A DNA stretch of 64,000 bases from an uncultured bacterium (GTDB lineage Bacteria > Actinomycetota > Actinomycetes > JAVEEB01): contig CAXSDE010000001.1 of the NCBI GenBank assembly GCA_964236265.1, positions 84,614 through 148,613 of the forward strand. The letters run 5' to 3'. Made by a program: the position numbers and the translations under genes. A model generated the notes under the pieces. The model was not told the DNA's origin. It ran no database searches and saw nothing but the letters and a program-made list of their open reading frames with translations. Positions 8,271 through 40,331 of this stretch are shown piece by piece (the first letter of the stretch is position 1; each line of letters opens with the position of its first letter).

Positions 8271-9796
<1,526 letters not shown>

Positions 9797-9929
9797 AGGC
9801 TCGGACTCCTGGGTCTTCAGGGGTGGACGCACTCGGCGAACAACGATCGGCCGGAGAGCCACGGCCGACTCTACCGGGCGGCGACGGAGAAAGGCATCCG
9901 ACAGCGACGAACCGCGCCCGCGCCCGGCA

Positions 9930-10030
9930 GGGGAACGCCGTTCTGGCCGGGGAACGCCGTTCTGGCCGGGGAACGCCGTTCTGGCCGGGAGTCCGCCGTT
10001 CGGGGCCGGGACGCCGCGGGGCTCGGTACG
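9930..10030. repeat. Tandem direct repeats: 3 perfect and 2 degenerate copies of a 19-21 bp unit, in the divergent purF / S8-protease intergenic region.
   Basis: Perfect copies are ggaacgccgttctggccgg. They are followed by gagtccgccgttcggggccgg and gacgccgcggggctcgg. Confidence 0.8.
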
Positions 10031-10076
10031 CTGTCGTCCTGCGTGCGTGCCGGCGCGCCAAGTGCTGGGAGCCCGC

Positions 10077-13000
10077 GTGTCGCGTCCGTCCGCCATCCGT
10101 CGCGGGCCGATCTCCATGGTCGTCGCCGCCGCGCTCACCGCAGGGGCGCTCGGGGCCGTCGTCGGACCCGCGCACATCGCGGTGGCCGCAGTCACCAGCT
10201 CCGTGTCCGCCCCGCCGGCGGGTGGCACAACTGCGGCCGCGCACGCGCAGGCGCCGGCCGGCTCGGGCACCTCGGTCGTGGCTCGCGACCGGCTCCTCAT
10301 CCGTTTCACGGCGGGGGCGACGCGAGCCGCGCAGGCACAGGCGCTCGCCGCCGCCGGGGTGGCCGACCCGCAACCGGTGGACCACACGCCGTACGTCCGC
10401 GTGTCCGTCCCGGGCGACCTGGCCACCGTTTCGCGCGTCCTCGCGCACGACGCGGCCATCGCCGAGGTGCAGCCCGTCTACCAGCGACGCACCACCGACC
10501 TGCCGGCAACGCGCACGGCGGCGCTGACCCCGAGCGAGCCGGCCTACCGGAAGTCGCAAGCCGCCGATGCCGGCCTGCTGCGACTGCCGGCCGCGTGGGC
10601 GCTGCGCCACGACTCGTCGGTCGTCGTGGCCGTCGTGGACACCGGCGTCGACCTCGGACACCCGGATCTGAAGGGACGCATCGTCCCCGGCCACGACTTC
10701 GTCGACAACGACGCCACCGCGCAGGACGAGAACGGCCACGGCACCCAGGTCGCCGGGATCATCGGCGCCGTCCCCGACAACAACCGCGGCGTCGCCGGCG
10801 TCGTGTGGAACGCCCGCATCATGCCCGTGCGGGTGCTCGACGCCGACGGCTACGGTTTCGACGACACGATCGCCAAGGGCATCATCTGGGCGGCGGACCA
10901 TGGTGCATCAGTCATCAACCTGTCGCTCGGTGGACCCGAGGCCGACAGCGTCCTGCAGTCAGCCGTCTCCTACGCAACGCGCAAGGGCGCGCTCGTCGTC
11001 GTCGCCGCCGGCAATGACGGCACGGCCGCGACGCAGTATCCGGCGGCCTACTCCGAGGCGATCGCCGTCGCGGCGACGGACTCGACAGGCACCCTGACGC
11101 TGTTTTCCAGCTACGGCGACTGGGTGGATGTCGCGGCTCCCGGCTGGAACGTCCTGAGCACCGCCTTGCGCTTCCGCGGGGCGCCCAGCTACATCGCCGA
11201 GTCGGGCACGTCGTTCTCCGCGCCGTACGTGTCGGGGGTGGCTGCCCTCGTGCGCGCCCAACATCCGCGCTGGTCGGTCGGCCACATCAGAGCACAACTG
11301 CGCACCACCGCCCGCGACGCGGGCACGCCCGGCTTCGACGAGTTCTACGGATTCGGCGTGCTCGACGCCGCTGCTGCACTGGGCGCCCCGCGCGGGCGAC
11401 CGGTCGCCTCCGCTGCCGCCGATGCCAACGACACCCCGGCGCACGCGGTGTCCGCGCTGCCGGCCACCCAGACGATCGGCGTCGAGGGAGATGTCGACTG
11501 GTTCCGTTACCGCGCCGCCGGACCCACCTGGGTGCGCGTGCGCGTGTCGGGCGGCTCCTCGTACCGGGAAGACGGCCCCCAGAGCCTGGCGCCCCTGATC
11601 AGCGTGTACGACGGCCACCTGACCCCGATGCGGGGCGGCGCCGCCGATGACAGCGGCGCTCCGGTGTCGATCGACGTGTGGCTGCCCGCGGCCGGCGATT
11701 TCTTCGTGAGCGTGCGCAACCAATACCCGTGCCGCAGCACCGTGCCTTACACCGTGTCGATCGCCGCCACCACGGCCCCGCGCGTGGACTTCCTGCCCGT
11801 GACCGCAGCCGACTTCGACACACAGAGCGGCGGGGTGGCGATCGGTGACGTGACGGGCGACGGCAGGAACGACCTCGTCCTGTCCTCGGCCGCCTCGTTC
11901 GGCGGGCCCTCGTTCCTCACCGTGGTGCCGGGACGCAACGGGCCGGTGAGCAGCAAACGCATCTACTACGACGCGAAGTTCTTCTGGCCGGGGCAGGGCA
12001 CCGTCGCGATCGCCGACGTCAACGGGGACGGCCGGCGCGACGTCGTGCTGGGCACGGACGCCGGCGCGCAGCTGTTCCTGCAGACCCGCGCGCACACACT
12101 GGTCGACAAGGGCCTCATCCCGGGGACGAAGGGCGGCACCGTGGCCGTCGTGCCGCACGCGGGCGGCGCCGGGGTCGTGGCTCAGCACAACGACTCGCTC
12201 GGCAACCCGCACGCGCTGGCGGTGTTCTCGTTCGCGCACTCGGCGTGGTCGCATGTCGATCTCGCGACCGTCGCGGCGAACGAGATCGAGGTCGGTGACC
12301 TCAATGCCGACGGGCGTCCCGACATCGCGGTCACCGACGGCTCGCCCGATATCTGGACCTTCCTCGATGACGGCAGCTCGTCGTACACGATGAGCACGCT
12401 CACCCCCGTCCCCTCGACGAGCGTCACGTCGCTGGCGGTCGCCGACGTCACGGGTGACGGCCTCGACGACGTCATCACGACGGCGGATCGCTATGCCAGC
12501 AAGGGATCCGTCACAGTGCTGCGCCAGCTGCCCGGTGCGTTCTTCGTCCCCGGCGGGACGGCGACGTTCACCGGTGGCAACGGGCCCGTCGATGCCGGCG
12601 ATGTCAACGGCGACGACCGCAAGGACATCGTCGTCACCAGCACGCGGTCCATCGTCGTGTTCCGCGCCGACGACACGGGGATGCTCAGCTCCCCGTCCTA
12701 CGTGAAACTGTCACCGACGGACGTGCAGACACCGCCGAACGGCCAGGCCGTCGGCGACCTCGACGGTGACCGCCTCGACGAGGTGGTGAGCCGTACGTCC
12801 GCGTTCACGTACGTGCTCGCCCACGCGCTGCCCGGCCATGACGGCATCGTCACGCACTCGCCGCGCGACGGGGCGCGCCGCGTGAGACGCGCGACCGCAC
12901 CCAACGTCATGTTCGGGCCGGCCGTCGCACCGGCGACCGTCACGTCGAGGACGGTCCGGCTCATCGACGACCGCACGCGCACCGTCGTGCCGGTGCGCCT

Positions 13001-13145
13001 CGCGTACGACAGCGCAACGCACGTGGCGACCTTGGCGCCGCTGCGCCTGCTCGCGGCGAAAACCCCGTACACCGTCATCGTCAGCGGCGTGCGCGCGGCG
13101 CACCGCGTGCTCGTCTCGAGCCGGTTCGGCTTCACGACCGGCTAG
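10077..13145 (+). CDS. Secreted subtilisin-like S8 serine peptidase with FG-GAP/VCBS repeats and a C-terminal Ig-like domain. Start inferred at the GTG that gives a signal peptide.
   Basis: Catalytic triad blocks VVAVVDTGVD, HGTQVAGIIG and GTSFSAPYVSGVAAL. At least six IGDVTGDGRNDLV-type FG-GAP repeats. Signal peptide VSRPSAIRRGPISMVVAAALTAGALGAVVGPAHIA. Confidence 0.85.
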   Translation: MSRPSAIRRGPISMVVAAALTAGALGAVVGPAHIAVAAVTSSVSAPPAGGTTAAAHAQAPAGSGTSVVARDRLLIRFTAGATRAAQAQALAAAGVADPQPVDHTPYVRVSVPGDLATVSRVLAHDAAIAEVQPVYQRRTTDLPATRTAALTPSEPAYRKSQAADAGLLRLPAAWALRHDSSVVVAVVDTGVDLGHPDLKGRIVPGHDFVDNDATAQDENGHGTQVAGIIGAVPDNNRGVAGVVWNARIMPVRVLDADGYGFDDTIAKGIIWAADHGASVINLSLGGPEADSVLQSAVSYATRKGALVVVAAGNDGTAATQYPAAYSEAIAVAATDSTGTLTLFSSYGDWVDVAAPGWNVLSTALRFRGAPSYIAESGTSFSAPYVSGVAALVRAQHPRWSVGHIRAQLRTTARDAGTPGFDEFYGFGVLDAAAALGAPRGRPVASAAADANDTPAHAVSALPATQTIGVEGDVDWFRYRAAGPTWVRVRVSGGSSYREDGPQSLAPLISVYDGHLTPMRGGAADDSGAPVSIDVWLPAAGDFFVSVRNQYPCRSTVPYTVSIAATTAPRVDFLPVTAADFDTQSGGVAIGDVTGDGRNDLVLSSAASFGGPSFLTVVPGRNGPVSSKRIYYDAKFFWPGQGTVAIADVNGDGRRDVVLGTDAGAQLFLQTRAHTLVDKGLIPGTKGGTVAVVPHAGGAGVVAQHNDSLGNPHALAVFSFAHSAWSHVDLATVAANEIEVGDLNADGRPDIAVTDGSPDIWTFLDDGSSSYTMSTLTPVPSTSVTSLAVADVTGDGLDDVITTADRYASKGSVTVLRQLPGAFFVPGGTATFTGGNGPVDAGDVNGDDRKDIVVTSTRSIVVFRADDTGMLSSPSYVKLSPTDVQTPPNGQAVGDLDGDRLDEVVSRTSAFTYVLAHALPGHDGIVTHSPRDGARRVRRATAPNVMFGPAVAPATVTSRTVRLIDDRTRTVVPVRLAYDSATHVATLAPLRLLAAKTPYTVIVSGVRAAHRVLVSSRFGFTTG

Positions 13146-27284: not shown

Positions 27285-27773
27285 TCAGCCGTAGGCGGGG
27301 CGCGCCGTCGCGGGGCGGTCGCGGTCCTCCTGGTCGAGGCGCTTGCCGATCGCATCCGGCGACGACCAGAGCAGAGCCTTCTCCATGTGGACGATCGTGC
27401 CGGCCTCCGGCCTGTTGCTGAAGGTGATCGTGTCGACGAGGTGCTGCATCAACAGCATGCCGCGGCCCTGCTCCGCCGTCGGCGGAGCGGTCAGCTCGGC
27501 CAGTGACGACGAGTCGAAGCCGTGCCCGGCGTCCACGACCTCGATGACGCACCGCTCGCCGTCGATGCCGGCGGAAACGAAATAGTCGTCGCCGCTGGCC
27601 GCATGGAGCAGCACGTTGGTGCACGCCTCGGACAAGGCGGTCTCGATGTCCTCGATGCACTCCTCGGCGACCTCGAGGGTGCGCAGCGACTGCGTCGTGA
27701 GATGCCGGATGACGGACACGGACACGGAGTCGCGCGGCAGCGACAGGCTGACCTTGATCTCCACGGGCGGCAC
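27285..27773 (-). CDS. Anti-sigma regulatory factor / Ser kinase (HATPase_c_2, RsbW/SpoIIAB-like), inserted between purS and purQ.
   Basis: ...TALSEACTNVLLHAASGDDYFVSAGIDGERCVIEVVDAGHGF...EQGRGMLLMQHLVDTITF... is a Bergerat-fold kinase signature. Confidence 0.7.
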   Translation of the reverse strand: MPPVEIKVSLSLPRDSVSVSVIRHLTTQSLRTLEVAEECIEDIETALSEACTNVLLHAASGDDYFVSAGIDGERCVIEVVDAGHGFDSSSLAELTAPPTAEQGRGMLLMQHLVDTITFSNRPEAGTIVHMEKALLWSSPDAIGKRLDQEDRDRPATARPAYG

Positions 27774-28276: not shown

Positions 28277-28570
28277 ATGTCGAACGTCAAGGTCACTTAC
28301 CAGGAAATGCGCACCGCCGGTGACAAGCTCAACACCGGCAAGGACGAGATCTTCCAGAACCTCGACCACCTCAAGCGCGAGATCGAGAACCTGCTGCAGG
28401 CGGGCTACGTCACCAGCAACTCCTCCGGCAAGTTCCAGCACTCCTACGAGACGTTCAACACGGGTGCTCGCGCCGTGCTCGAGGGACTGACGGAGATGTC
28501 CGGCTATCTGCACACGGCGGCGCACACGTTCGAGGAAGCCGACACGTTGCTCGCGGGCAAGCTCGCCTAG
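28277..28570 (+). CDS. WXG100/ESAT-6-like small helical protein (97 aa). The canonical W-x-G is replaced by Y-V-T...G. Monocistronic.
   Basis: MSNVKVTYQEMRTAGDKLNTGKDEIFQNLDHLKREIENLLQAGYVTSNSSGKFQHSYETFNTGARAVLEGLTEMSGYLHTAAHTFEEADTLLAGKLA has a helix-turn-helix hairpin pattern like EsxA/YukE. Strong RBS (aaggagacagtcATG). A perfect terminator lies 26 nt downstream. Confidence 0.55.
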   Translation: MSNVKVTYQEMRTAGDKLNTGKDEIFQNLDHLKREIENLLQAGYVTSNSSGKFQHSYETFNTGARAVLEGLTEMSGYLHTAAHTFEEADTLLAGKLA

Positions 28571-28772: not shown

Positions 28773-29333
28773 TCAGCGCGGCGGGTACTTAGCCGCCAGC
28801 TTCCGAATCGTTGTCATATTGCGCGCGGTGCCCTCGCCGTTGACGGACAGTCGGCGTACGACGGAGGGCGGCAACGTGGTGTCCGTCATCCGGCCGTGAC
28901 GCAGCCAGTAGAACTCCCGCTGACCGAAGGCGAACCGGTCCTCGTCGTTTGCCGCACCGAGGAGTGCATCGCGGAGGCTCGCGTCCGGCGCCACGCGAAG
29001 GAAGGTGACGTGCAGGGCGTGAGTGTCGTCGCGGTCGACGCCCGGAAAGGGGTCGTACGCCGCGATGGCCGCGAGCTCGCTCTCGGTGCGCAGGAAGGTC
29101 GCCACGGAAAAACCGAGCGCCGCGTGCAGCACACGTTCCAGAGCGACCTCGAGAGCGTCCGACCTCTCGCGGGACCCCGTTGACGCGAGGATGTTGCCGC
29201 TGGCAAGGAAGGTTTCGACGCCCGTGAATCCGGCGGCCTCGAACGGCGCGACGAAGTCGGCCTTCCTCACGTTCCGGCCGCGGACGTTGATGCCGCGCAG
29301 GAACGCCACGTAACGAACCGTCATGCGAGCCAT
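28773..29333 (-). CDS. DUF1697-family protein.
   Basis: MARMTVRYVAFLRGINVRGRNVRKADFVAPFEAAGFTGVETFLASGNILAS... matches DUF1697 N-termini. The longer ORF-track N-terminal extension is translated from the intergenic repeats and is unlikely to be real. Confidence 0.7.
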   Translation of the reverse strand: MARMTVRYVAFLRGINVRGRNVRKADFVAPFEAAGFTGVETFLASGNILASTGSRERSDALEVALERVLHAALGFSVATFLRTESELAAIAAYDPFPGVDRDDTHALHVTFLRVAPDASLRDALLGAANDEDRFAFGQREFYWLRHGRMTDTTLPPSVVRRLSVNGEGTARNMTTIRKLAAKYPPR

Positions 29334-29366
29334 GCTGCCAGGATCGCCCGACGACGCCAGGCGCGG

Positions 29367-29429
29367 GACGTGCCGACAGGCGCGGCGGACGTGCCGGCAG
29401 GCGGGCCGGACGTGCCGGCAGGGGGGCCG
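29367..29429. repeat. Three tandem 21-bp direct repeats (ggacgtgccg[a/g]cagg[c/g]g[c/g]gg[c]c) in the divergent DUF1697 / pilin-operon promoter region.
   Basis: Seen directly. A 21-bp period is two helical turns. About 150 bp upstream of the pilin-like gene 1 start. Confidence 0.75.
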
Positions 29430-29576
29430 TGGGTGGCGAGCGGCGGCGCGATCAAGCGCGGGCAGGCTCGAGCGGGCCAAAGATTACTCCGAACGCTGCT
29501 AAAGCGCTCTGATGGCTGGGCCGACCTTCAACTCACGTGCGCCCGGGATTGACCCGGCCGCGCTGGAGGGAGTCCC

Positions 29577-31013
29577 GTGCTTGCGCGCCTGCGTTCGAGG
29601 CTCGACGACGACGGCTTCACGCTGGTCGAAGTCATGATCTCGCTCGTCATCTTCGCCCTGATCAGCACCGTCGCCGCGGTTGGTCTGCTCTCCAACCTCC
29701 GCTCCGCCGGGTCCAACCGCGCCCGCGTGACGGCCGCTGACCTGGCTTTGAAGGAGATCGAGACCGTCCGCTCAGCCTTCATGTCTCAGGCTCAGCAAGC
29801 CGGGCCCACGACCGTCCTGCAAAACCTCGTCGAGAACCCGCAGCCGAACGGCACCGAAGGCGGCCCGACGATGGACACCGTGGTCCAGGGCCGCGCGTAC
29901 AAGGTGTGGCGTGACGCGGAATGGGAGCCCCTCAACGACACCGCCGGGCCGTGCGACGGCTTGGCCGGCGGTGCGAGCAAGCCACTGGCCTATCTGCGGG
30001 TCACGGTCACCGTCGTCTGGGCCAACATGGGTTCGACGACACCAGTCACCAACACGACCCTGTTGACGCCGCCACTGGGCACATACAAGGACGGGCAGGG
30101 TCACCTCAAGGTGAAGGTGACCGACATCAACGCGGCCCCGTTGACCAACATCGACGTGAACGTCTATCAGACGACCCCGAAAGTGCTCGTCCAGACAGGC
30201 GCCACTGGCCCGGACGGCTGCGCGTTCTTCGCGTACCTGACTCCGGGCAACTACACGGTCGAGGTGACCAAGCCGGGCTACGTCACGACCGACTGGCTCA
30301 ACCTGTTCAGCTACCCCACGAGCGTCACCGCCAACAACGTGACCTCGGTGCCGGTCAGTTATACGCCGCAAGCCGACCTTCAGCTGGCGTTCGACCCAGC
30401 GGCCGTCCCCACGCCCTACGCGGCGCCCGTCAACGCCACCATGAGTTACTACAGCCCCAACCTTCCGGTGACGGGTTCCCCCACGTGGACGGGCTGGCAG
30501 CGTGCACGCTCGACACTCCCGGCACCGACGCTGCCGCTCTTGCACCCATGGCCCGACTCGTACGGCGTCGCGGCGTGGGCCGGTGACTGCTACGACTCGG
30601 ACCCCGGCTTCTACCCTCCTGCGTCCCGGCAGAAGTTCGTGCCCGTCGTCGGCAGCCCGATGAGCACGCCCGTCACGGGCGCCCTCGTCGCCGTGAAGAT
30701 CAGCGGGGCCGCCATCGGACAGACGTTCTATGCGGAACATGCCAAGTTCATACCGGTCACACCTCCGACATCGCCCGTCACATACACGACCACCCTGGCG
30801 TGCCCCGCGACAGCGGCCGCCAACGACACTCTCGGGACCGCCATGGGCGAGATCCTCACGTTCCCGGCCGGCACGGTCGCGAGCGGCACCACCGCAGCCA
30901 ACATCCTGCTCCCGTACGGCATCTGGACTATCCGGTCCACGACGGGCAACAAGGTAGTCACGGTCACCGTTACTCCCACCAGCACCTACCCGATGGCGGT
31001 GACCCTCACATGA
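29577..31013 (+). CDS. Large prepilin-type N-terminal cleavage/methylation domain protein (478 aa; modular pseudopilin-like with beta-sandwich/CarboxypepD_reg-like modules).
   Basis: N-terminus MLARLRSRLDDDG|FTLVEVMISLVIFALISTVAAVGLL has a positive leader, G at -1, F at +1, E at +5 and a 20-aa hydrophobic helix, which is a class-III (type IV prepilin) signal. GTG start with GGAGGGA RBS. HLKVKVTD...GCAFFAYLTPGNYTVEVTKPGYV is a Cna-B/CarboxypepD_reg-like segment. Confidence 0.75.
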   Translation: MLARLRSRLDDDGFTLVEVMISLVIFALISTVAAVGLLSNLRSAGSNRARVTAADLALKEIETVRSAFMSQAQQAGPTTVLQNLVENPQPNGTEGGPTMDTVVQGRAYKVWRDAEWEPLNDTAGPCDGLAGGASKPLAYLRVTVTVVWANMGSTTPVTNTTLLTPPLGTYKDGQGHLKVKVTDINAAPLTNIDVNVYQTTPKVLVQTGATGPDGCAFFAYLTPGNYTVEVTKPGYVTTDWLNLFSYPTSVTANNVTSVPVSYTPQADLQLAFDPAAVPTPYAAPVNATMSYYSPNLPVTGSPTWTGWQRARSTLPAPTLPLLHPWPDSYGVAAWAGDCYDSDPGFYPPASRQKFVPVVGSPMSTPVTGALVAVKISGAAIGQTFYAEHAKFIPVTPPTSPVTYTTTLACPATAAANDTLGTAMGEILTFPAGTVASGTTAANILLPYGIWTIRSTTGNKVVTVTVTPTSTYPMAVTLT

Positions 31014-31768
31014 TGCGGCTGATCCAGCGGGCACAGAAGGACGATGGCGGCTTCAGCCTCGTCGAGTTGCTCATCTCGATGACCATCTTCTCCGTCCTGA
31101 TGGGCATGGTCTTCACCGTCCTCATCACGACGCAGAAGCAGGTCGCGGGCGCCGGCGTCCGGCTGGACGACATCGACCAGGGCCGCATGGCGCTGGATGT
31201 GCTGTCGCGGACCTTGCGCACCGCCGTCGAACCGGCGCAGCTGCAGGTCTTCTGCACGACGTGCGGCGGTTCCGGAACGGCCGCGGGTGCAACAGCGATC
31301 ACCGACGCGCAGCAGCTGACGATCACTCTCTACTCCAACACGGACTCGGCGGCCGGCCCGAACCTGATCACGTTCTCGGTCCAGTACGACAGCTCGTTGA
31401 AGATGACGACGCTGACGAAGTCGACCCAACCTCCGGACGTGGGATCAGCGCCGAACTACATCTACACGACATGCACACCGGGCCCTGGGTGTTCGAAGCG
31501 GGTAATGACCTTGGTCAAGGGGGTCACATTCCCGGTGGGCGCCCCGTCTTTCTTCCAGTATTTCGACAACAAGGGCAGCGATATCACGCCGGTGAGCGCC
31601 GGCACGAGCCTGACCCTGAGCCAGCTGATCACCATCGACTCGGTCGGCATCAACATGACCGTCGACACGCCGGACAATTTCAAGGCCGGGCCGACCACGA
31701 TCTACAGCCGCGTCGGCCTTCCCAACTCCGGGACGGGCGTCCTCGTCCTTCCCACCGCGACATCATGA
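31010..31768 (+). CDS. Prepilin-type N-terminal domain protein 2 (252 aa), translationally coupled.
   Basis: MMRLIQRAQKDDGG|FSLVELLISMTIFSVLMGMVFTVLI with G-F-x-x-x-E. The ATG overlaps the gene-1 stop (ATGATG). Confidence 0.75.
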   Translation: MMRLIQRAQKDDGGFSLVELLISMTIFSVLMGMVFTVLITTQKQVAGAGVRLDDIDQGRMALDVLSRTLRTAVEPAQLQVFCTTCGGSGTAAGATAITDAQQLTITLYSNTDSAAGPNLITFSVQYDSSLKMTTLTKSTQPPDVGSAPNYIYTTCTPGPGCSKRVMTLVKGVTFPVGAPSFFQYFDNKGSDITPVSAGTSLTLSQLITIDSVGINMTVDTPDNFKAGPTTIYSRVGLPNSGTGVLVLPTATS

Positions 31769-33753
31769 GGGCCTCTATGAGAATCGGTTGGATAGCGCGA
31801 CGGATCGACGCGGCTCGCGGTGACTCCGGTGTCGCCATCGTGCTCGTGGTCGGCGTCGGCATGGTCGTGTCGATGCTGCTTCTCTCCCTGACGGCGTACA
31901 CGATTCTGTCCGTGTCGCACTCACGGCAGGAGCAGGACACGCAGGCGGCGCTATCCGCCGCCCAAGCTGGAGTGGACGACTACCTCAGCCGGCTCAACGC
32001 CAACAACACCTACTGGCAGGTGCCCATCTCGCCGGCGCCGAACCAGTGCGTCGACAATGTGGCCATCCGTACGATCGGCGATGCCTGCGGCGACATAAAG
32101 ACCGGCTGGGCGCCGATCTCGGGTCAGCAGTACACGCCGACGACCGGCAGCACCACGCTCGTCAGCTGCTCCGTCGCCGACTCGGCCGGCAACTTCGCCG
32201 CGCCGTGCGGGGCGTTCCACTACGACGTGGACATCTCGCAGACGATCGCTACCGGGGCCATCAACCTCACGTCGACGGGCAAGGCGCACGGCAAGACGCG
32301 AAGCGTGAAGGTCGTCGTGCGCCGGCAGAGCTTCGGCGACTTCATGTATTACACCGACCTCGAGACGAGCGACCCCGGCAACCCCTTTTCCTACGACGAC
32401 TCCGTGCCGACGCCCAACACCGACCAGTGCTACCAGCACGTCTGGGACACGCCGACCCGGCCGACCTCGTACGTAGTGGCGCCGGCCGGGTCGACCGAGG
32501 GGGCCACCAACTCGGGCTTTACGTGCGATGACATCACGTTTAACGGCGGCGACGTTCTCAATGGGCCGATCCACTCCAACGACGCCATCCGCGTCGGCAC
32601 GGCGACGTTCAACGGACCCGTCACGACGGCGTGGCCGCGGTGCGCACCCAACGCCCTCGGTGTCGCGCCGGGCGTGTCCTACTGTTACCGCGACGCCGTC
32701 GGCACCGCGACGTTCAACAAGAGCATCAAGTACGTCACGCCGCTGTTGATGCCGCCGACACCGGTCGACCTGCGCAAGCAGACGGACCCCGCACAGGTGA
32801 CAAACCCCGGCTGCATGTACGAAGGTCCGACACGCATCCAGTTCCAGCCCGGCGGCTCCATGAAGGTGTGGAGTCCCTACACCCGCACGCTTAACTCAGG
32901 TTGCGGGTCAGTGAGCGGCTTCCAGACCAACCCGACGCAGCCGCAGACGATCACGCCCCCGGCCAACAACGTCATCTACGTCGACCCGTCACCGGCCAGC
33001 GTCGGAGCGACCAACGGCCCGTGCCCGGCAGGCTTCGTCGGTGGGTTGCCGGTGACCCCGACAACCGGCGGCACCGGCAGCACGACCGGTGACATCAACG
33101 CAATCTGGGGGGACTACGACTGCACCCAGGGCACGCTCTACGTCGACGGCACCTTCAACGGCCGCATGACCGTCGGATCCTCGGCCAACATCATCATCGT
33201 CGGTGACCTGAAGTACGACACCAGCGCGGCCGGCAACGACAGCCTCGGCCTCGTGGCCCAGACGAGCGTGGAGATCTACCACCCCGTGCGCTGCCAGACC
33301 TGGTACAACGTCGACTCGGCCAGCCCGCCGCACAAGGCATGCCTCCCGAACAATTCCGGTGGCAACAGCTCGGAGATCGCGCGCAATGCCGGTGCCGGGG
33401 GACCGCTGCCCGGCACGCCGACCCTGAGCGGCTACTTCGCCAACCCCATCGTCAACGCCGCCATGCTGTCGCTGCAGCACAGCTTCGTGGTGCAGGCCTA
33501 CAACCTCGGGACCGCGTCGAACCTCGGCTCGGGCGGTCTGTCCGTGTTCGGCTCGATCGCGCAGAAGTTCCGCGGCGCGGTCGCGACGAGCAACAGTTCC
33601 GGCACCATCGTCACCGGCTACAAGAAGGTGTACACGTACGACAACCGCTTGAAGTTCGCGCCGCCGCCCTACTACCTTGACCCGGTTGCGTCGAAGTACA
33701 TCTCGGCGGTGTTTTCGGAGATTCCGCCGGCGTACAAGCCGACCGATCCGTAG
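31765..33753 (+). CDS. Large (662 aa) PilX_N/TadG-like pseudopilin-associated protein, Gly/Thr/Asn-rich, possibly beta-helical. The third gene of the operon. Possible alternative start at 31777.
   Basis: N-terminus MRASMRIGWIARRIDAARGDSGVAIVLVVGVGMVVSMLLLSLTAYTIL resembles PilX_N/TadG N-termini. The ATG overlaps the gene-2 stop. The rest is a long low-hydrophobicity G/T/S/N-rich region. Confidence 0.6.
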   Translation: MRASMRIGWIARRIDAARGDSGVAIVLVVGVGMVVSMLLLSLTAYTILSVSHSRQEQDTQAALSAAQAGVDDYLSRLNANNTYWQVPISPAPNQCVDNVAIRTIGDACGDIKTGWAPISGQQYTPTTGSTTLVSCSVADSAGNFAAPCGAFHYDVDISQTIATGAINLTSTGKAHGKTRSVKVVVRRQSFGDFMYYTDLETSDPGNPFSYDDSVPTPNTDQCYQHVWDTPTRPTSYVVAPAGSTEGATNSGFTCDDITFNGGDVLNGPIHSNDAIRVGTATFNGPVTTAWPRCAPNALGVAPGVSYCYRDAVGTATFNKSIKYVTPLLMPPTPVDLRKQTDPAQVTNPGCMYEGPTRIQFQPGGSMKVWSPYTRTLNSGCGSVSGFQTNPTQPQTITPPANNVIYVDPSPASVGATNGPCPAGFVGGLPVTPTTGGTGSTTGDINAIWGDYDCTQGTLYVDGTFNGRMTVGSSANIIIVGDLKYDTSAAGNDSLGLVAQTSVEIYHPVRCQTWYNVDSASPPHKACLPNNSGGNSSEIARNAGAGGPLPGTPTLSGYFANPIVNAAMLSLQHSFVVQAYNLGTASNLGSGGLSVFGSIAQKFRGAVATSNSSGTIVTGYKKVYTYDNRLKFAPPPYYLDPVASKYISAVFSEIPPAYKPTDP

Positions 33754-33774
33754 ACCGCGCATCACGAGCAACGG

Positions 33775-33816
33775 GAGAGCCGCCGGCATGATGCCGGCGG
33801 CTCTCGTCGTCTTTCC
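33775..33816 (+). terminator. Rho-independent terminator of the pilin-like operon.
   Basis: Perfect 14-bp stem gagagccgccggca / tgccggcggctctc, 3-nt loop, then gtcgtctttcc. Confidence 0.55.
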
Positions 33817-33880
33817 GGCGTGTACGAAGGCAGTTTCCCGCGTCGCCCGGCCTCAGCACACCGCTCGACACTGCCTCTAG

Positions 33881-36800
33881 CTAGCCCGTCGCGATGTCCC
33901 CGGCCGTCGTCACCGGCGCCTGCACCGTGACCAGCTCGCCGTCGCCGCTGTGCAGATACCCGCGGCCCGCGCTGACTGGTCCTCCGATGATGCTGCGCGG
34001 CAGCCGCACCCCGATGAGGTCGCCGTCACCGATGCCCTGCGGGGACAGCAGAATGCCGGTGCGGCCGCGCTTCATGTCGACCTGCCATCCGCTGAAGCCG
34101 GTGCACACGTCGTCGGTGCCGCCGGCAACGACGACAGCCTGACCACGTTCCGCTCCGTGCCGGATGACGTCCCGCAACACGTCGGCCGCCCCGCACTCCT
34201 TCAGCAACTCTGCGTCGTCGACCAGCACCACGACAGGACCGGTCCCGCCCGCGAGCACCGTGGCCAGTTCCGCCGGAAGGACGGAGCCCTCGTACGACGC
34301 CAGCACGCCGGGGTGACCCGCGAGCTCCCGCAGCGGCGACGGCTTCGGCGTGGCCAGGACCACCGATGCCCCGCGCGCGAGCAACGACACCGCCATCGTC
34401 ACCAGCAGGCCGCTGCGCCCCGACCGGGGCGCGCCGCCGATGATGAACGTCGGCGTGCGCGCGAGGTCGGCGCCGTACGCCGTCCACTCGTCGCCCCCGA
34501 CTCCCACCAGCGACCACAACGGCGACGTCGTGTCGACGAGCGTGTCCGCCTCGGCGTAGCTGAGCTTCGTCGGGAGCAGCTCCACCCGGAACGGCCGCAA
34601 CCCGCGCGGGACGTCCGGCTCCCGCTCGCGGGCCTCCGCCGCGATCTCCCGCAGCGCCGCCGCCTGCCCGGCGCCCGTGCCGTCCTTGTCGAGCAAGGCG
34701 ACCTGGATCTCGCGGCCGGTCTCGGCGCGGAACGCGCGGCCGGCGGGCGGGTCGTCCGGCATCGACCGGGGACTGAGCGCCGCGAGGGTGTAGTCGGCCC
34801 GGTCGGCCATGCGGAACGTCAGCCGGTCCTCGCTCATCGCCGCGATCCGCCCCGACAGCACTGTGCGGTCGCCGACGATGACAACGTGCACGCCGACGGT
34901 CGCGCCCTCGCGGAGCAGCTGCGTGATCGCGTCGGTCAGCGCCCCGCCGTCGAGCTCCCCGAGCGTCGAGACGAAGCCCTCCCAGCGGTCGAGCAGCACC
35001 ACGACATGCGGCAACCGCTCGCCCGCCGCGCTCGCCGCCCGCTGTTCGCCGATGTCGGACACACCCAGCCGGCCGAGGATCTCCTGCCGCCGCGCGACCT
35101 CCCCGACGAGGCGGCCCAACACGCGCCGGGCGCGCTCCGGTTGCGTACGCGACACGACGGCGCCGCAGTGCGGTAGATCCGCCAGCGGCAGCAGGGCGCC
35201 GTTGCCGCAGTCGAGGCCGTAGATGTGCACGTCGGCGGCCGAGTGCCGGCGCCCGATCGAGCCCGCGATCGTCCGCAGCAATTGGGAGCGCCCACTCCGC
35301 GGTGCCCCCGCCACCAGCAGGTGCCCGAACGTGGCGAAGTCGAGCACGGCCGCGCGCTGGAGCTGCTCCGCCGGCAGGTCCTCGATCCCGAACGGCACGG
35401 TCGCGAGCCCCCCGACCGCGAGCCCCCCGACCGCGAGCCCCCCGACCGCGAGCCCCCCGACCGCCGACCGCGGCGCCGCCGGCCGCGGCGCCGCAATGTC
35501 ATCGAGCACCACATCGGTGCCGAGGGCCGCCAACCACGGGCTGTGCTGCGGCTCCAGACGGAGTTGCTCGTTGGCCGCGCAGATCGCCTCGACCACTGCG
35601 GTCAGATCGGTCTCGGCCTCCTCGTCCGCCCGGACCGTCGGCCGCGCCGGCGCCGGGCGCCCGAGGGCGGCCACGTCCACGTCCACGACGAACGGGTCGG
35701 CGACCACCCGCGCCACCGCGCCCGGTCGCCGCCCACCGACGCGCCCGCTCTGGAACGGCAGGAGCGACGCGTGCCCCAGCCGCGCATACGCGCGCCCGGG
35801 CGTCGACTTCGCGATGCGCGCGGCCTCACCGGTCCCGATGACGTCCGCGCTCTCGCTCACATCCGTGACGCGCAGGGCGATGCGCAGGTTGGTGTTGGCG
35901 CGGATCTCCGGCGAGACGACACCCGACGGCCGCTGCGTGGCGAGGATGAGGTGGATGCCGAGCGAGCGACCGCGTTGGGCGATATTCACCAAGCCTGTCA
36001 CGAAATCCGGGAGGTCGCGCACCATCGACGCGAACTCGTCGATGACGATCAGCAGCCGTGGCATGGCCTCCAGGTACGGCATCGTCCGCATTCCCGCGAC
36101 GTAGTCCTCGATGTCCTTGGCGCCGACCGCCGCCAGCATGTGTTCCCGGCGCTTCAGCTCCGCCGACAGGGATTCCAACGCGCGGCCCACGAGGTGCGCG
36201 TCGAGGTCGGTGACCATGCCGACGGTGTGCGGCAGCCGTACACAATCCTTGAACGCACTGCCGCCCTTGTAGTCGATGAGGACGAACGTCATCGCGTCCG
36301 GTTTGTTGGCCACCGCCAGCGACGCGACGATCGACTGCAGCAGCTCGGACTTGCCGGAGCCCGTCGTGCCGGCGATCAGCCCGTGCGGGCCGTCGCGCGA
36401 CAGGTCGAGGGAGAACGCGCCGTCCATCCCCTCGCCGATGACGAATTCGGTCGACCGGCCGCCCGAGAGCCACCGGGCCGCGATGTCGGGCGCCGTCGGC
36501 GGGTCGAGCTGCAACACGTCGAGCAAGCGGCTGGACGACGGGATCGCCCCGCCGCTCTCGTCCGCGCTGGTGTCGCGGATCGGCGCCAGCGCGCGGGCCA
36601 CCCGTTCGGCCCACCCGGCGGGCACCTCGTCTGGCCGCACGTCCTCGACCGTCTCCGCCCGCATCTGCCGCAGGGTGAGCCGCCCGCTCCCGGGATCGAC
36701 GGTGACGACGGCCTGGCACTCCTCGGGCAGCAACCGCTCGTCGGCGTCGAGGCAGACGACGAACATCCCGACCGACGGGCCGTCGCGCAGCAACTGCGCG

Positions 36801-38299
36801 ACACCCGGCAGCGAACGCAGCCGCCGCGCGCCGTCGAGCACCACCACGATGTCCGTCGCGAACGTCACCGTCGACGACTCCCGCGCCGCGTCGCGCCGCG
36901 CGGTCAGCATCGTGATGAGCTCGCCGATCCGGCGCCCGACGGTCTCGTTGTCGGAGCCGATCAGCGCGATCGTGTCCTGCCCGTCGGCTGGCCGCGTGTG
37001 CGGCAGCCAGCGCACCCAGGCCCACTCGCCGCGGGACTGCGAGTCGGTCAGCACGCACAGCTGCACGTCGCGCGGGCTGTGCAGGACACCCAGCTGGGTG
37101 ACGAGGCAGCGCGTCACCGCGGTCGCGAGCGGTCCGCGGCCGGCGATGCCGAGCACGCCACGTTCGGTCAGCGACACCGGCACCGGCACCGCGTGCGCGA
37201 GCGGGTGCTGCTCGCGCCGATGGTCGTCCTGCGCCGGGTCCTCGACCGTGACGTCGCTCCGGAGGTCGGCGGTGCCGACACGCAGGACGAGATAGTCGGG
37301 GTCGTGCCGCCGCCGCTCCCACAGCCGCCGGCGCGGACCCACCGCAGTGAGCAGCAGCTCGGCGGGGTCGGGGCATTCGGCCCGCCGCGCCAATCGCTCG
37401 AGCCCCAGCGCCTCCTGGACATCCGCCTCGATGCGCGCCGTCGTCTCCCGGAACTGCGCCAGTTGTTTCCGGTACGACGACCTCCCGTGGCGACGGTCGG
37501 CGAAGAAGTTGGCCACGAGCGCCACGGGGCTGAGCAGACCCATCAACAGATAGCGCGGCTGGTGCATCACGGTCGCCATGACACCGGCGCCGATCAGCGG
37601 CACGAGGGCCATGATGATCGGGATGGGGCGGCGGTCGTTCTCGCGCGGCTGGGACGGCAGCTTGAACGCGGTCTGGCGTTTCGGCGGGTGCAGGCGCGGC
37701 GGGCGGTTGTAATCCAGGCCCGCGCCGTCGGCGGAGACCACGAGCGCGGCGTCGGGCGCGCTGGGCCGGCCGAGCTCGAGCAGCACACTGCCGAGGTCGA
37801 CGACGTCGCCCGGCTCCCAGGGGACCGCCCCGGTCACCTCGGCGTCCTCCAGAGCGATCTGCGCGCCGGCGAACGGCGTCAGCGCGCAGCGCCCGTCGGA
37901 GGCGACCGCGAGGACGAACTCGTGCGAGAGCGCCCCCGGCGCGCTCAGCACCACTCCGCAGTCGGCAGCAGCGCCGACGTCGTATTCCCCCGGCGCGAGG
38001 CGGTGGACGAGCCCCGCGTCCGGACCGCCGACGATCCGCAACTCGATCACGCCCGGCGGCTCGGTCGGGACGCACCCGGCGGCCGTGCCGAAGCTGACGA
38101 TGCAGCCGTCCCGCAGCCGCGAGTCGGGCACCGGCATCGACGGGTCGAGGAGCACCCCGTCGACGTACGCCGGGCGGGACTCGACTCCCAGCCGAGCCGC
38201 GAGCGCAGCCACCGCGAGACCGACCGTCGAGCCGTCGTCGAGGTCGATGAGCACGTCCTCGCGCGCGCCGCCGACCGCATCGACGGCCGTGAGAGTCAT
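33881..38299 (-). CDS. FtsK/SpoIIIE-family triple-ATPase, EssC/EccC-like (type VII secretion motor architecture), with an N-terminal ubiquitin-like + FHA module and a TM segment.
   Basis: 1472 aa from ATG 38299 (MTLTAVDAVGG...). FHA-like block IELRIVGGPDAGLVHRLAPGEYDVGAAADCGVVL...SHEFVLAV. TM helix IPIIMALVPLIGAGVMATVM. Three P-loops: GTTGSGKSELL plus LLIVIDEF, GAPRSGRSQLL and GAPRSGRSGLL. Confidence 0.85.
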   Translation of the reverse strand: MTLTAVDAVGGAREDVLIDLDDGSTVGLAVAALAARLGVESRPAYVDGVLLDPSMPVPDSRLRDGCIVSFGTAAGCVPTEPPGVIELRIVGGPDAGLVHRLAPGEYDVGAAADCGVVLSAPGALSHEFVLAVASDGRCALTPFAGAQIALEDAEVTGAVPWEPGDVVDLGSVLLELGRPSAPDAALVVSADGAGLDYNRPPRLHPPKRQTAFKLPSQPRENDRRPIPIIMALVPLIGAGVMATVMHQPRYLLMGLLSPVALVANFFADRRHGRSSYRKQLAQFRETTARIEADVQEALGLERLARRAECPDPAELLLTAVGPRRRLWERRRHDPDYLVLRVGTADLRSDVTVEDPAQDDHRREQHPLAHAVPVPVSLTERGVLGIAGRGPLATAVTRCLVTQLGVLHSPRDVQLCVLTDSQSRGEWAWVRWLPHTRPADGQDTIALIGSDNETVGRRIGELITMLTARRDAARESSTVTFATDIVVVLDGARRLRSLPGVAQLLRDGPSVGMFVVCLDADERLLPEECQAVVTVDPGSGRLTLRQMRAETVEDVRPDEVPAGWAERVARALAPIRDTSADESGGAIPSSSRLLDVLQLDPPTAPDIAARWLSGGRSTEFVIGEGMDGAFSLDLSRDGPHGLIAGTTGSGKSELLQSIVASLAVANKPDAMTFVLIDYKGGSAFKDCVRLPHTVGMVTDLDAHLVGRALESLSAELKRREHMLAAVGAKDIEDYVAGMRTMPYLEAMPRLLIVIDEFASMVRDLPDFVTGLVNIAQRGRSLGIHLILATQRPSGVVSPEIRANTNLRIALRVTDVSESADVIGTGEAARIAKSTPGRAYARLGHASLLPFQSGRVGGRRPGAVARVVADPFVVDVDVAALGRPAPARPTVRADEEAETDLTAVVEAICAANEQLRLEPQHSPWLAALGTDVVLDDIAAPRPAAPRSAVGGLAVGGLAVGGLAVGGLATVPFGIEDLPAEQLQRAAVLDFATFGHLLVAGAPRSGRSQLLRTIAGSIGRRHSAADVHIYGLDCGNGALLPLADLPHCGAVVSRTQPERARRVLGRLVGEVARRQEILGRLGVSDIGEQRAASAAGERLPHVVVLLDRWEGFVSTLGELDGGALTDAITQLLREGATVGVHVVIVGDRTVLSGRIAAMSEDRLTFRMADRADYTLAALSPRSMPDDPPAGRAFRAETGREIQVALLDKDGTGAGQAAALREIAAEAREREPDVPRGLRPFRVELLPTKLSYAEADTLVDTTSPLWSLVGVGGDEWTAYGADLARTPTFIIGGAPRSGRSGLLVTMAVSLLARGASVVLATPKPSPLRELAGHPGVLASYEGSVLPAELATVLAGGTGPVVVLVDDAELLKECGAADVLRDVIRHGAERGQAVVVAGGTDDVCTGFSGWQVDMKRGRTGILLSPQGIGDGDLIGVRLPRSIIGGPVSAGRGYLHSGDGELVTVQAPVTTAGDIATG
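35401..35470 (-). repeat. In-frame 15-bp tandem repeat (x4) encoding (GGLAV)4 in the linker between ATPase domains 1 and 2 of the EssC-like protein.
   Basis: cgcgagccccccgac x4 on the plus strand. The protein reads SAVGGLAVGGLAVGGLAVGGLATVPF. Confidence 0.8.
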
Positions 38300-38482: not shown

Positions 38483-38971
38483 ATGGCCAGCGAGGACCCG
38501 ACTGTCCCTAGTGCCGATGACGTCCTGACCCGGATCGGGCAGGCGGTCGCGGCGGCCGGCGGCGGGGACACGGACGGGGCACGCGCGACGCTCGAGGCGT
38601 TGTGGGTCCAGGCGCGCGGGCCGACAGCCGACGCCCTCCATCAGTTGGCCATCGCGCACGCCTTGGCCGACCTGCAGGACGACCCGCGCGAGGAGCTGGC
38701 GTGGGACCTGCTGGCGCTGCAGGCGGCCGCGGACGTCACCGACGAGCGTGTCGCCCGTTCCGGAATGCCGGGGCGCGCCGCCGCCCTCTACCCGTCACTG
38801 CACCACAACCTCGGCGAGGACTACCGCACACTCGGCGAGCTGGAGGCCGCCCGCCGCCACGCCGCTCTGGGTCTGGACGCCGTGGTCCACCTGGGCGACG
38901 ACGGCTACAGCCGGATGATCACGGCCGGCCTGCAACGCCTGCGCGACAGGCTGGCCGAGCTGCCTGAGTAG
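38483..38971 (+). CDS. Hypothetical helical protein, divergent from the EssC-like gene.
   Basis: MASEDPTVPSADDVLTRIGQAVAAAG... is Ala/Leu-rich and helical. RBS GGAGGGCGGA upstream. No domain recognised. Confidence 0.45.
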   Translation: MASEDPTVPSADDVLTRIGQAVAAAGGGDTDGARATLEALWVQARGPTADALHQLAIAHALADLQDDPREELAWDLLALQAAADVTDERVARSGMPGRAAALYPSLHHNLGEDYRTLGELEAARRHAALGLDAVVHLGDDGYSRMITAGLQRLRDRLAELPE

Positions 38972-39332: not shown

Positions 39333-40331
39333 TCAATCGGTGACCGCGTGGCGGCCGCGTCCGCCCGCGTTGAGCTGATCGATGATCGCGCCGATGTATT
39401 GCCGTCGGAACGCGGTCATCTTCGCCGAAAACGGCGGGAGCAGCAGCACGCCCGCAGCGGTGAGTGCGTCGGCTTCGTCGAGGGCCGCGAGCCAACGCTT
39501 CGCCGCACCGGCGTCGGCGTCGTGCATCAGCAGGTGCAGGGTCGTCTGCAGGTTGTGGTGGCGCGCAGCGCTGACTGTCTGGTTGAACATCTGTCGGCGC
39601 GGTTCGTGAAACTCCTCGTTGGCCCGTTGCAGCTGTCCGGCGAGTGCCAGAACGCCCGGCCCGGACCGTCTTGCGCTGTCGAGCAACGTCAGCTGCAGCT
39701 CACGCACGAGGTCGTCGGTGTGCGCCCGGCTCTCGAGCATTGCCTGCACGTCGATGTCGATGGCGACCTCGATGGCCTCATCGGGCAGGTGGTGCTTCGG
39801 CCACGGTTCGGCTCCCCACAGGTCGAGCAGATCCCCGTCGGCGTCCTCCGGCGTGGCTGCGGCCGGATGGTCGATCTGCGCCCACACGACTTTGCCGCTG
39901 TCGCCGAGCGGTTCGACGCCCCACGTGGCGCTGAGCCGCTGCACGAGAAGGAGCCCGCGGCCGCTCGTTGCGGTCGGCCGCACCGGAGTCCAGCGCGGCA
40001 GCTTGTCCGAGGCGTCCGTGACACTCAGGCGGACGCCGGCCCCGCATTCCTCGACGGACAAGGCCATCTCGGTGCGGGCATGGATGACCGCGTTCGCGAC
40101 CAACTCCGTCACGATGATGGCCGCGTCGTTCATCAGGTCCTCGCGGCCGACCTCGGACAGGGCCTTCGCCACCGCCTGCCGAGCGAGCTGCACACTCTCC
40201 GGCACTGGCGCCAGATGGAGCAACACGTGGCCGACCTCCGTCCCTCGCTCGTCCGTTCGCTGTGCGACGGAGCCTAACGCCGACCACCGGCGCAGCCTCG
40301 GCGGTGCAGCGACCCGCCGCCGGTCAATCAA
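39333..40331 (-). CDS. ATP-binding anti-sigma-factor-like protein (HATPase_c_2 N-terminal domain) with a roughly 190-aa C-terminal domain of unknown function. Start uncertain.
   Basis: ...LARQAVAKALSEVGREDLMNDAAIIVTELVANAVIHARTEMALSVEECGAGVRLSVTDAS...SGRGLLLVQRLSATWGVE... is the Bergerat-fold kinase signature. Confidence 0.55.
   Translation of the reverse strand: MIDRRRVAAPPRLRRWSALGSVAQRTDERGTEVGHVLLHLAPVPESVQLARQAVAKALSEVGREDLMNDAAIIVTELVANAVIHARTEMALSVEECGAGVRLSVTDASDKLPRWTPVRPTATSGRGLLLVQRLSATWGVEPLGDSGKVVWAQIDHPAAATPEDADGDLLDLWGAEPWPKHHLPDEAIEVAIDIDVQAMLESRAHTDDLVRELQLTLLDSARRSGPGVLALAGQLQRANEEFHEPRRQMFNQTVSAARHHNLQTTLHLLMHDADAGAAKRWLAALDEADALTAAGVLLLPPFSAKMTAFRRQYIGAIIDQLNAGGRGRHAVTD

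Follow-up and report, generated by a model that had tools for sequence, protein, structure and literature searches.

Type VII secretion systems (T7SSs) have been divided into subtypes T7SSa to T7SSj, and in that classification only two of these, T7SSa and T7SSd, are actinobacterial (Garrett, Higginson & Palmer 2024, PMC11217815). In T7SSa, the ESX systems, the motor is EccC, a protein with two transmembrane helices, a DUF region and three FtsK-type ATPase domains (Thermomonospora curvata EccC, PDB 4NH0; EccC5, 7NP7). The YukD-like domain of actinobacteria was described as always fused to a 12-transmembrane protein, now called EccD, and no YukD-like fusion to the motor was described (Iyer et al. 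2006, PMC1779556). In T7SSb of firmicutes, a 2025 cryo-electron microscopy study of the Bacillus subtilis system found that YukD binds the FHA domains and the DUF region of the motor YukB, and that it is needed for assembly (PMC12637312). T7SSd is characterised in the classification by phosphothreonine-competent FHA domains, the kinase TsdD, TsdH and TsdI, and explicitly by no ubiquitin-like component (PMC11217815). In this study, we have explored a 64-kb stretch of DNA from an uncultured member of the Actinomycetota (contig CAXSDE010000001.1; hereafter the window, to whose positions all coordinates refer) and, within it, a gene at 33881-38299 on the minus strand for a motor of the EccC/EssC type. 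We consider it likely that this motor is the membrane-anchored ATPase of a WXG100 (type VII-like) export system, and that its family is a large one in actinobacteria, inherited vertically.

The open reading frame, which runs from an ATG at 38299 to a stop codon at 33881-33883 (1472 codons, 1472 aa), encodes in order a ubiquitin-like domain, an FHA domain, two transmembrane helices, a DUF region and three ATPase domains (D1 to D3). It has the features of the EccC/EssC (TsxC) superfamily: two N-proximal transmembrane helices, the DUF region, three P-loop domains, intact Walker A and B motifs in D1 and genetic linkage to WXG100. The motor resembles EccC in this membrane and ATPase layout, in a D-x-W-type Walker B motif in D2, in its WXG100 linkage and in its actinobacterial host; unlike EccC, which has neither, it bears N-terminal ubiquitin-like and FHA domains. 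Its locus also differs from an ESX locus, with no eccB, eccD, eccE or mycP nearby and one WXG100 gene instead of an esxA/esxB pair. With the firmicute motor EssC/YukB (9QKS) it shares an FHA fold without phosphothreonine-binding residues and a single WXG100 gene, but EssC has two tandem FHA domains where the motor has one, the ubiquitin-like module of T7SSb is the separate protein YukD/EsaB where here it is fused in cis, and no EssB/YukC pseudokinase, EssA or EsaA/YueB is found near the motor. As in T7SSd (Olsenella, Bifidobacterium), whose motor is TsdC, we see an actinobacterial FHA-bearing motor with a short list of components and, in Streptomyces-type loci only, a membrane Ser/Thr kinase gene that adjoins the motor. 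Unlike T7SSd, the system has a ubiquitin-like domain, no equivalents of TsdH or TsdI were seen, and there is no kinase in the window. Neither of the two described actinobacterial subtypes thus matches the architecture of the motor and, judged by architecture, motifs and model scores, the family appears to fit none of the published subtypes T7SSa to T7SSj that we checked.

The similarity scores place the motor among the T7SS ATPases. The top NCBIfam models were EssC (TIGR03928; 562.8 bits over aa 196-1309, equivalog cut-off 778.4), EccCa (420.8 bits, cut-off 509.15) and EccCb (311.8 bits, cut-off 346.55), whereas FtsK (77.1 bits, cut-off 1566) and TraB (38.1 bits, cut-off 800) stayed far below theirs. 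Pfam FtsK_SpoIIIE gave 204 bits. Among structures in the PDB, the motor matched T. curvata EccC (4NH0) with 291 bits, B. subtilis YukB (9QKS) with 238 and EccC5 with 184. The original prediction, made from the sequence alone, had called the gene a T7SS-type coupling ATPase, in agreement with these best matches, and the conjugative translocase that it named as a refuting alternative fails on the TraB and FtsK scores; assignments to TraB, FtsK, CedB, VirB4 and HerA were all rejected as far under their cut-offs. It had also placed the motor closest to firmicute EssC. This stands for the possession of an FHA domain and for nothing else, because the two EccC models together (420.8 + 311.8 bits) outscore EssC (562.8 bits) and the best structural match is 4NH0, which makes the core at least as EccC-like as EssC-like. 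These comparisons set the family apart from mycobacterial EccC as well as from firmicute EssC.

The N-terminal region was modelled with AlphaFold2 from 21 family sequences (aa 1-222, mean pLDDT 84.7). Residues 1-79 (38063-38299, minus strand) form a ubiquitin-like beta-grasp domain fused in cis; modelled separately (pLDDT 92.2), they gave Foldseek matches to ubiquitin, NEDD8 and SUMO with TM-scores of 0.65-0.74. Given these structural matches, and with the Pfam YukD model matching only weakly, in 2 of the 21 family members, the fold can be called ubiquitin-like, while homology to YukD is reasonable but unproven. Residues ~85-180 (37760-38047, minus strand) form one FHA fold, which Foldseek superposed on the FHA domains CT664 (3gqs), OdhI, GarA, YscD and EmbR with TM-scores, normalised to the target, of up to 0.89. 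Pfam Yop-YscD_cpl gave 35.3 bits on the N-terminal fragment of the motor and matches 20 of the 21 family N-termini. An N-terminal ubiquitin-like plus FHA module, as first proposed from the sequence, is therefore borne out by both folds. The family FHA domain, on the evidence of its motifs, is phosphothreonine-blind, in that it lacks the residues that bind phosphothreonine: in 61 members, the Gly of the GR motif is invariant and is followed by Arg in 10 (16%), and the SxxH (~0%) and NG (0%) motifs are absent. The corresponding frequencies for GR, SxxH and NG given in Table S1 of the classification are 0%, 0% and 21% for EssC and 100%, 98% and 90% for TsdC (PMC11217815); the family thus resembles EssC and is unlike TsdC. 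A profile of the ubiquitin-like and FHA region matched 138 clusters (50% identity) at E<=1e-30; at E<=1e-10 the number rose to 1120. Almost all matches begin at about residue 3, and the full-length proteins matched measure 1414-1646 aa. By this profile, the module is conserved and family-specific. One polypeptide therefore carries two modules, ubiquitin-like and FHA, that other T7SSs supply separately or differently; the ubiquitin-like module is elsewhere the free YukD/EsaB (T7SSb) or the N-terminus of EccD (T7SSa).

The membrane region is a hydropathy peak at aa ~224-268 (37496-37630, minus strand) that was aligned with the membrane regions of EccC3 and YukB. It was first read as one transmembrane region; hydropathy resolves it into two helices, at aa ~226-246 (IPIIMALVPLIGAGVMATVM) and ~251-268 (YLLMGLLSPVALVANFF). 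The domain order first proposed is confirmed by the folds and by the FtsK_SpoIIIE, EssC and EccC models, except that it missed the DUF/D0 region which precedes D1 and matches the EccC stalk and DUF. All three ATPase domains are encoded on the minus strand. D1 (aa ~620-860, 35720-36442) has intact Walker A (GTTGSGKS) and Walker B (LLIVIDEF) motifs, both invariant in the family alignment. D2 (aa ~970-1210, 34670-35392) and D3 (aa ~1265-1472, 33884-34507) share the Walker A sequence GAPRSGRS, with Lys replaced by Arg, and their Walker B motifs read VVLLDRWE and VVLVDDAE, respectively. An earlier description of the second and third Walker B motifs as degenerate is thus right for D2 (LLDRWE) and wrong for D3, which retains VLVDDAE; from the aligned motifs, the clearer degeneracy is the Walker A change from Lys to Arg in D2 and D3, which leaves D1 as the only domain with the Walker A lysine. 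In the alignment, these arginines face the GKS lysines of T. curvata EccC (for D2, GGPQTGKS), and the D3 Walker A of EccC5 likewise reads GRT. As the Walker A endings KS/RS/RS are common to 81/81 family motors, the RS/RS state would be ancestral and no sign of decay.

The motor had been described as an orphan that stands alone, a description that our results contradict. A WXG100-family gene (97 aa; Pfam PF06013 52.1 bits, cut-off 27.3) lies on the plus strand at 28277-28570, 5.3 kb beyond the 3' end of the motor gene, and is the sole open reading frame in the window that matches the family hidden Markov model (HMM; E=2e-31). In its product, Y-x-T replaces W-x-G, and a C-terminal F-x-x-x-D motif is present. 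We called and clustered genes in 80 loci plus the window (81 in all), and found that the most frequent immediate neighbour of the motor is a ~98-aa protein of this WXG100 cluster. A gene of the cluster occurs within 10 kb of the motor in 58 of the 81 loci, at a median distance of 192 bp and usually divergent and upstream; these ~98-aa neighbours score 52-58 bits with Pfam WXG100 against the same cut-off of 27.3. Two loci with 73%-identical motors (L081 and L082) share synteny with the window throughout the purine genes. The order in L081 is motor, DUF1697, WXG100 (on the opposite strand), purS, HATPase_c_2, purQ and purL, and in L082 an HxlR/ADH pair stands between DUF1697 and WXG100. In both, the DUF1697 gene (14353-14901 in L081; 9770-10315 in L082) overlaps the stop codon of the motor by 4 bp; in L081 it lies on the strand of the motor. 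This overlap could reflect translational coupling, and DUF1697 may serve the system as an accessory limited to this clade; in Streptomyces-type loci it is unlinked to the motor.

In the window, the DUF1697 gene (28773-29333, minus strand; Pfam DUF1697 107.6 bits) is separated from the motor by an insertion. By blastn, the window and L081 are collinear but for a 4.6-kb block at 29326-33912 (plus strand), which has a GC content of 0.65-0.67, lower than the 0.70-0.75 of its flanks. The block holds a pilin-like N_methyl protein of 478 aa (29577-31013), with a CarboxypepD_reg domain by Pfam, and an 830-aa protein (31261-33753) without a Pfam match. The motor therefore looks solitary because this pilin-like block has been inserted between it and the DUF1697/WXG100 pair, and the break in collinearity shows the convergent pilin-like operon to be a lineage-specific insertion. 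Among the fetched loci, it is present only in the window and in a Frankiaceae metagenome-assembled genome (MAG) locus (L001), where the inserted sequences have diverged; since the L001 motor is intact and 80% identical, the arrangement has persisted through divergence. The pilin-like operon was also considered as a functional partner of the motor and rejected, being confined to these two loci and missing in L081 and L082 despite their synteny. A 21-bp x3 tandem repeat (GCGGGACGTGCCGACAGGCGC-like, in 42-nt copies that are 71-86% identical) lies at 29363-29446, at the edge of the insertion between the start of DUF1697 and the pilin-like gene. Between the stop codons of the 830-aa gene and the motor, at 33775-33805, an inverted repeat with perfectly matching 15-nt arms and a loop of one nucleotide (GAGAGCCGCCGGCAT / ATGCCGGCGGCTCTC) resembles a bidirectional terminator hairpin.

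The motor family is large. More than 2200 proteins match the motor at E<=1e-10; the nearest, at 80-86% identity, come from Frankiaceae MAGs, and full-length relatives of 53-60% identity are found in Streptomyces, Streptantibioticus, Actinacidiphila, Catenulispora and Wenjunlia, and in Streptosporangiaceae, Pseudonocardiaceae and Nocardioidaceae. Hundreds of invariant columns are kept in the family alignment. The family, with its distinctive all-in-one N-terminus, is thus widespread in actinobacteria, being present in most of the Streptomyces loci sampled and in several other actinobacterial families. Streptomyces goes unmentioned in the text of the classification and in the portions of its supplement text that were covered (PMC11217815). 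In the databases, family proteins carry generic names ("FtsK/SpoIIIE domain-containing protein", "S-DNA-T family DNA segregation ATPase FtsK/SpoIIIE", "cell division protein FtsK"), and those annotated in these genomes as FtsK/SpoIIIE DNA segregation ATPases would be better termed T7SS-type motors. In Streptomyces, we presume the orthologue to be SCO4508, from the neighbourhood of mqnA (SCO4506).

Around the motor, recognisable T7SS machinery is missing. Searches with Pfam and NCBIfam gave no match to EccB, EccD, EccE, MycP, EssA, EssB or EsaA among the recurrent neighbours in the 81 loci, most of which have no Pfam or NCBIfam match at all; eccB, eccD and mycP are absent from the 64-kb window, and separate genes for YukD/EsaB, EssB/YukC, EssA and EsaA/YueB occur neither in the window nor among the recurrent neighbours. 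Streptomyces-type loci hold extra genes, which encode small EspC/WXG-like proteins (~100 aa), ~447-aa proteins with a Pfam T7SS_signal match and transmembrane helices (sometimes two such genes per locus) and several ~200-aa families without a Pfam match. A convergent membrane Ser/Thr kinase gene lies downstream of the motor in Streptomyces loci (51 of the 81 loci) and is absent from the window and from non-Streptomyces loci. By tblastn and HMM searches, T7SS_signal and EspC-like genes are absent from the window, L001, L081 and L082, and the ~200-aa families from the window. In the clade of the window, the system appears, from its gene content, to consist of the motor and one WXG100 protein. 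Two side observations concern these neighbourhoods. The cassettes of T7SS_signal, EspC-like and ~200-aa genes (for example in L006, L041 and L066), of which more than one copy is possible, resemble the effector/partner/immunity cassettes of T7SSb LXG toxins. In six loci (L003, L011, L047, L061, L076 and L079), Tad/Flp-pilus-type genes, including one for a T2SSE-family ATPase, adjoin the motor upstream; possible CpaB-, TadB- or TadC-like proteins near the motor have no Pfam matches and are unconfirmed. Tad loci beside T7SSg and T7SSh are noted in the text of Garrett et al. (PMC11217815).

Based on our results, we propose the following model of WXG100 export. The motor would oligomerise in the membrane through its two transmembrane helices and the DUF region. 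Because YukD binds the FHA and DUF regions of YukB and is needed for assembly (PMC12637312), we infer that the cis-fused ubiquitin-like and FHA modules could dock onto the DUF and lend stability to the assembled complex, in the manner of YukD with YukB. D1, as the sole domain with a Walker A lysine, would hydrolyse ATP and drive export, and D2 and D3 would act as nucleotide-binding regulatory and substrate-recognition modules; by analogy with published work on EccC and EssC, D3 is the presumed substrate-recognition domain. As the substrate we envisage the single WXG100 protein (28277-28570) in the form of a homodimer, which the motor would recognise by the C-terminal F-x-x-x-D tail. More tentatively, the all-in-one motor might oligomerise as both engine and channel, with no partners of the EccB/EccD/MycP or EssA/EssB/EsaA type, and so represent a further, unnamed T7SS subtype, widespread in Streptomyces and other mycelial Actinomycetota, and a minimal WXG100 export machine. 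We regard this stronger proposal as possible but doubtful. In this family, the ubiquitin-like assembly factor and the FHA domain are fused to the motor and no other machinery genes are recognisable. If the motor does work with WXG100 alone, it would be the simplest natural T7SS, well suited to studies of the nature of the translocation channel and of the roles of the ubiquitin-like and FHA modules.

Several of our observations weigh against WXG100 export as the function of the motor. It scores under the curated cut-offs for both EssC and EccC; its partner lacks a literal W-x-G and narrowly misses the NCBIfam WXG100 cut-off (41.5 against 44.85); no further dedicated membrane component was seen in the 64-kb window or among the recurrent neighbours; and we have found no description of this motor family in the literature. 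As for the division of labour among the domains, a Walker A arginine may still permit nucleotide binding or even slow hydrolysis in D2 and D3. One could also imagine that the motor is an extra EccC paralogue which plugs into a canonical ESX (T7SSa) complex of EccB, EccD, EccE and MycP encoded elsewhere. In its favour, a canonical ESX locus is also found in Streptomyces species, EssC gives the ATPase core a lower score than do the EccC models and T. curvata EccC, and no membrane partners lie nearby, in a view limited to a 64-kb window of the genome. Nevertheless, we think this rather improbable. The motor has its own ubiquitin-like domain, which in ESX is supplied by EccD (PMC1779556); its N-terminal module is conserved and peculiar to the family; it scores under the cut-offs of both EccCa and EccCb; and a WXG100 partner of its own is kept across families of Actinomycetota.

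A decaying, non-functional remnant, cut off by the insertion, with degenerate ATPases and an accumulating repeat, would explain why the motor is parted from DUF1697 and WXG100, why D2 and D3 have Arg for Lys in Walker A and why a 20-aa hydrophobic expansion of a linker is unique to this sequence. However, the 4.4-kb frame is intact, with a GC content at third codon positions (GC3) of 0.92 for the stop-to-stop frame that holds it, the RS/RS state is shared by all 81 family motors and hence ancestral, hundreds of columns are invariant, and the L001 motor is intact beside the same insertion at 80% identity; decay is thus very unlikely. We give even less credence to a DNA translocase of the FtsK, SpoIIIE or conjugative TraB type, for which the Pfam FtsK_SpoIIIE match and the source annotation ("DNA segregation ATPase FtsK/SpoIIIE") could be cited: it is contradicted by scores of 77 bits against 1566 for FtsK and 38 against 800 for TraB, by three tandem ATPase domains with a DUF region as in EccC, by the WXG100 linkage and by a setting among purine-biosynthesis genes rather than in a mobile element. 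A type VII-like motor for WXG100 export therefore remains our preferred reading, and the two features that first drew attention to the gene have ordinary explanations: insertion of a gene block for its orphan look, and expansion by slippage in a variable linker for its repeat.

This repeat lies in the linker between D1 and D2 and is, as originally reported, a real and perfect in-frame array of four 15-bp units; Tandem Repeats Finder (TRF) places it at 35402-35464 (minus strand; period 15, 4.2 copies, 100% match, score 126). Read in the direction of the gene, its unit is GCGGTCGGGGGGCTC, translated four times as AVGGL at aa 946-966, directly before the conserved "VPFGIEDLPAEQ" that opens D2. 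A second, imperfect array (15 bp x2.3, 35461-35494), encoding AAPRP/AAPRS, stands directly before the AVGGL repeat in the protein, and because this other duplication adjoins it the linker appears prone to slippage. The repeat is absent from 39/39 of the closest homologues displayed, which have a single "GLLA" or "AGLA" there; relatives of 73-86% identity have a single copy at the site, the length of the surrounding linker differs between family members, and the database cluster that holds the identical protein has one member. Since homologues are without the repeat and the linker is variable in length, the array would be a recent, lineage-specific expansion in a permissive linker, produced probably by replication slippage in what the alignment suggests is a hypervariable stretch. 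It is most likely functionally neutral. The repeat is hydrophobic enough to score as a third transmembrane segment; this was rejected, relatives being without the repeat and because a single span there would put D2 and D3 outside the cell.

The start of the motor and its setting complete the description. The frame is open upstream of the ATG at 38299 as far as 38659, and this upstream part overlaps a divergent gene; homologues begin at the position of this ATG, and residue 2 is the start of the first predicted beta-strand in the AlphaFold2 model. The divergent gene (38483-38971, plus strand; 162 aa) encodes a helical, TPR-like protein with a sub-threshold TPR_4 match only. The original prediction named it, as a 163-aa helical protein, the only neighbour of the motor. 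It is no conserved partner: as none of the 82 fetched loci holds a relative it is ruled out, and it lies outside the secretion system. The window, at ~70% GC, is ordinary chromosome, with purF, purL, purQ, purS, purB, kdp genes, catalase, msrA and GGDEF-EAL proteins, and the motor sits in a housekeeping purine-biosynthesis region rather than in a mobile element. At 9693-13145, the window encodes a subtilase (Peptidase_S8) of ~1150 aa that also contains FG-GAP repeats and a Big_5 domain; its architecture differs from that of mycosin, so it is no evidence for an ESX locus. Two family motors (P0116, 1465 aa, and P0117, 1520 aa) are each listed with a longest contig of 5,408,661 bp, which suggests that some genomes have two motor paralogues. 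Finally, HATPase_c_2 genes (anti-sigma-factor-kinase-like) flank the region at 27285-27773 and 39333-40226, and the copy that lies between purS and purQ is kept in L081 and L082, although such a gene is not a usual member of an operon for purine biosynthesis.

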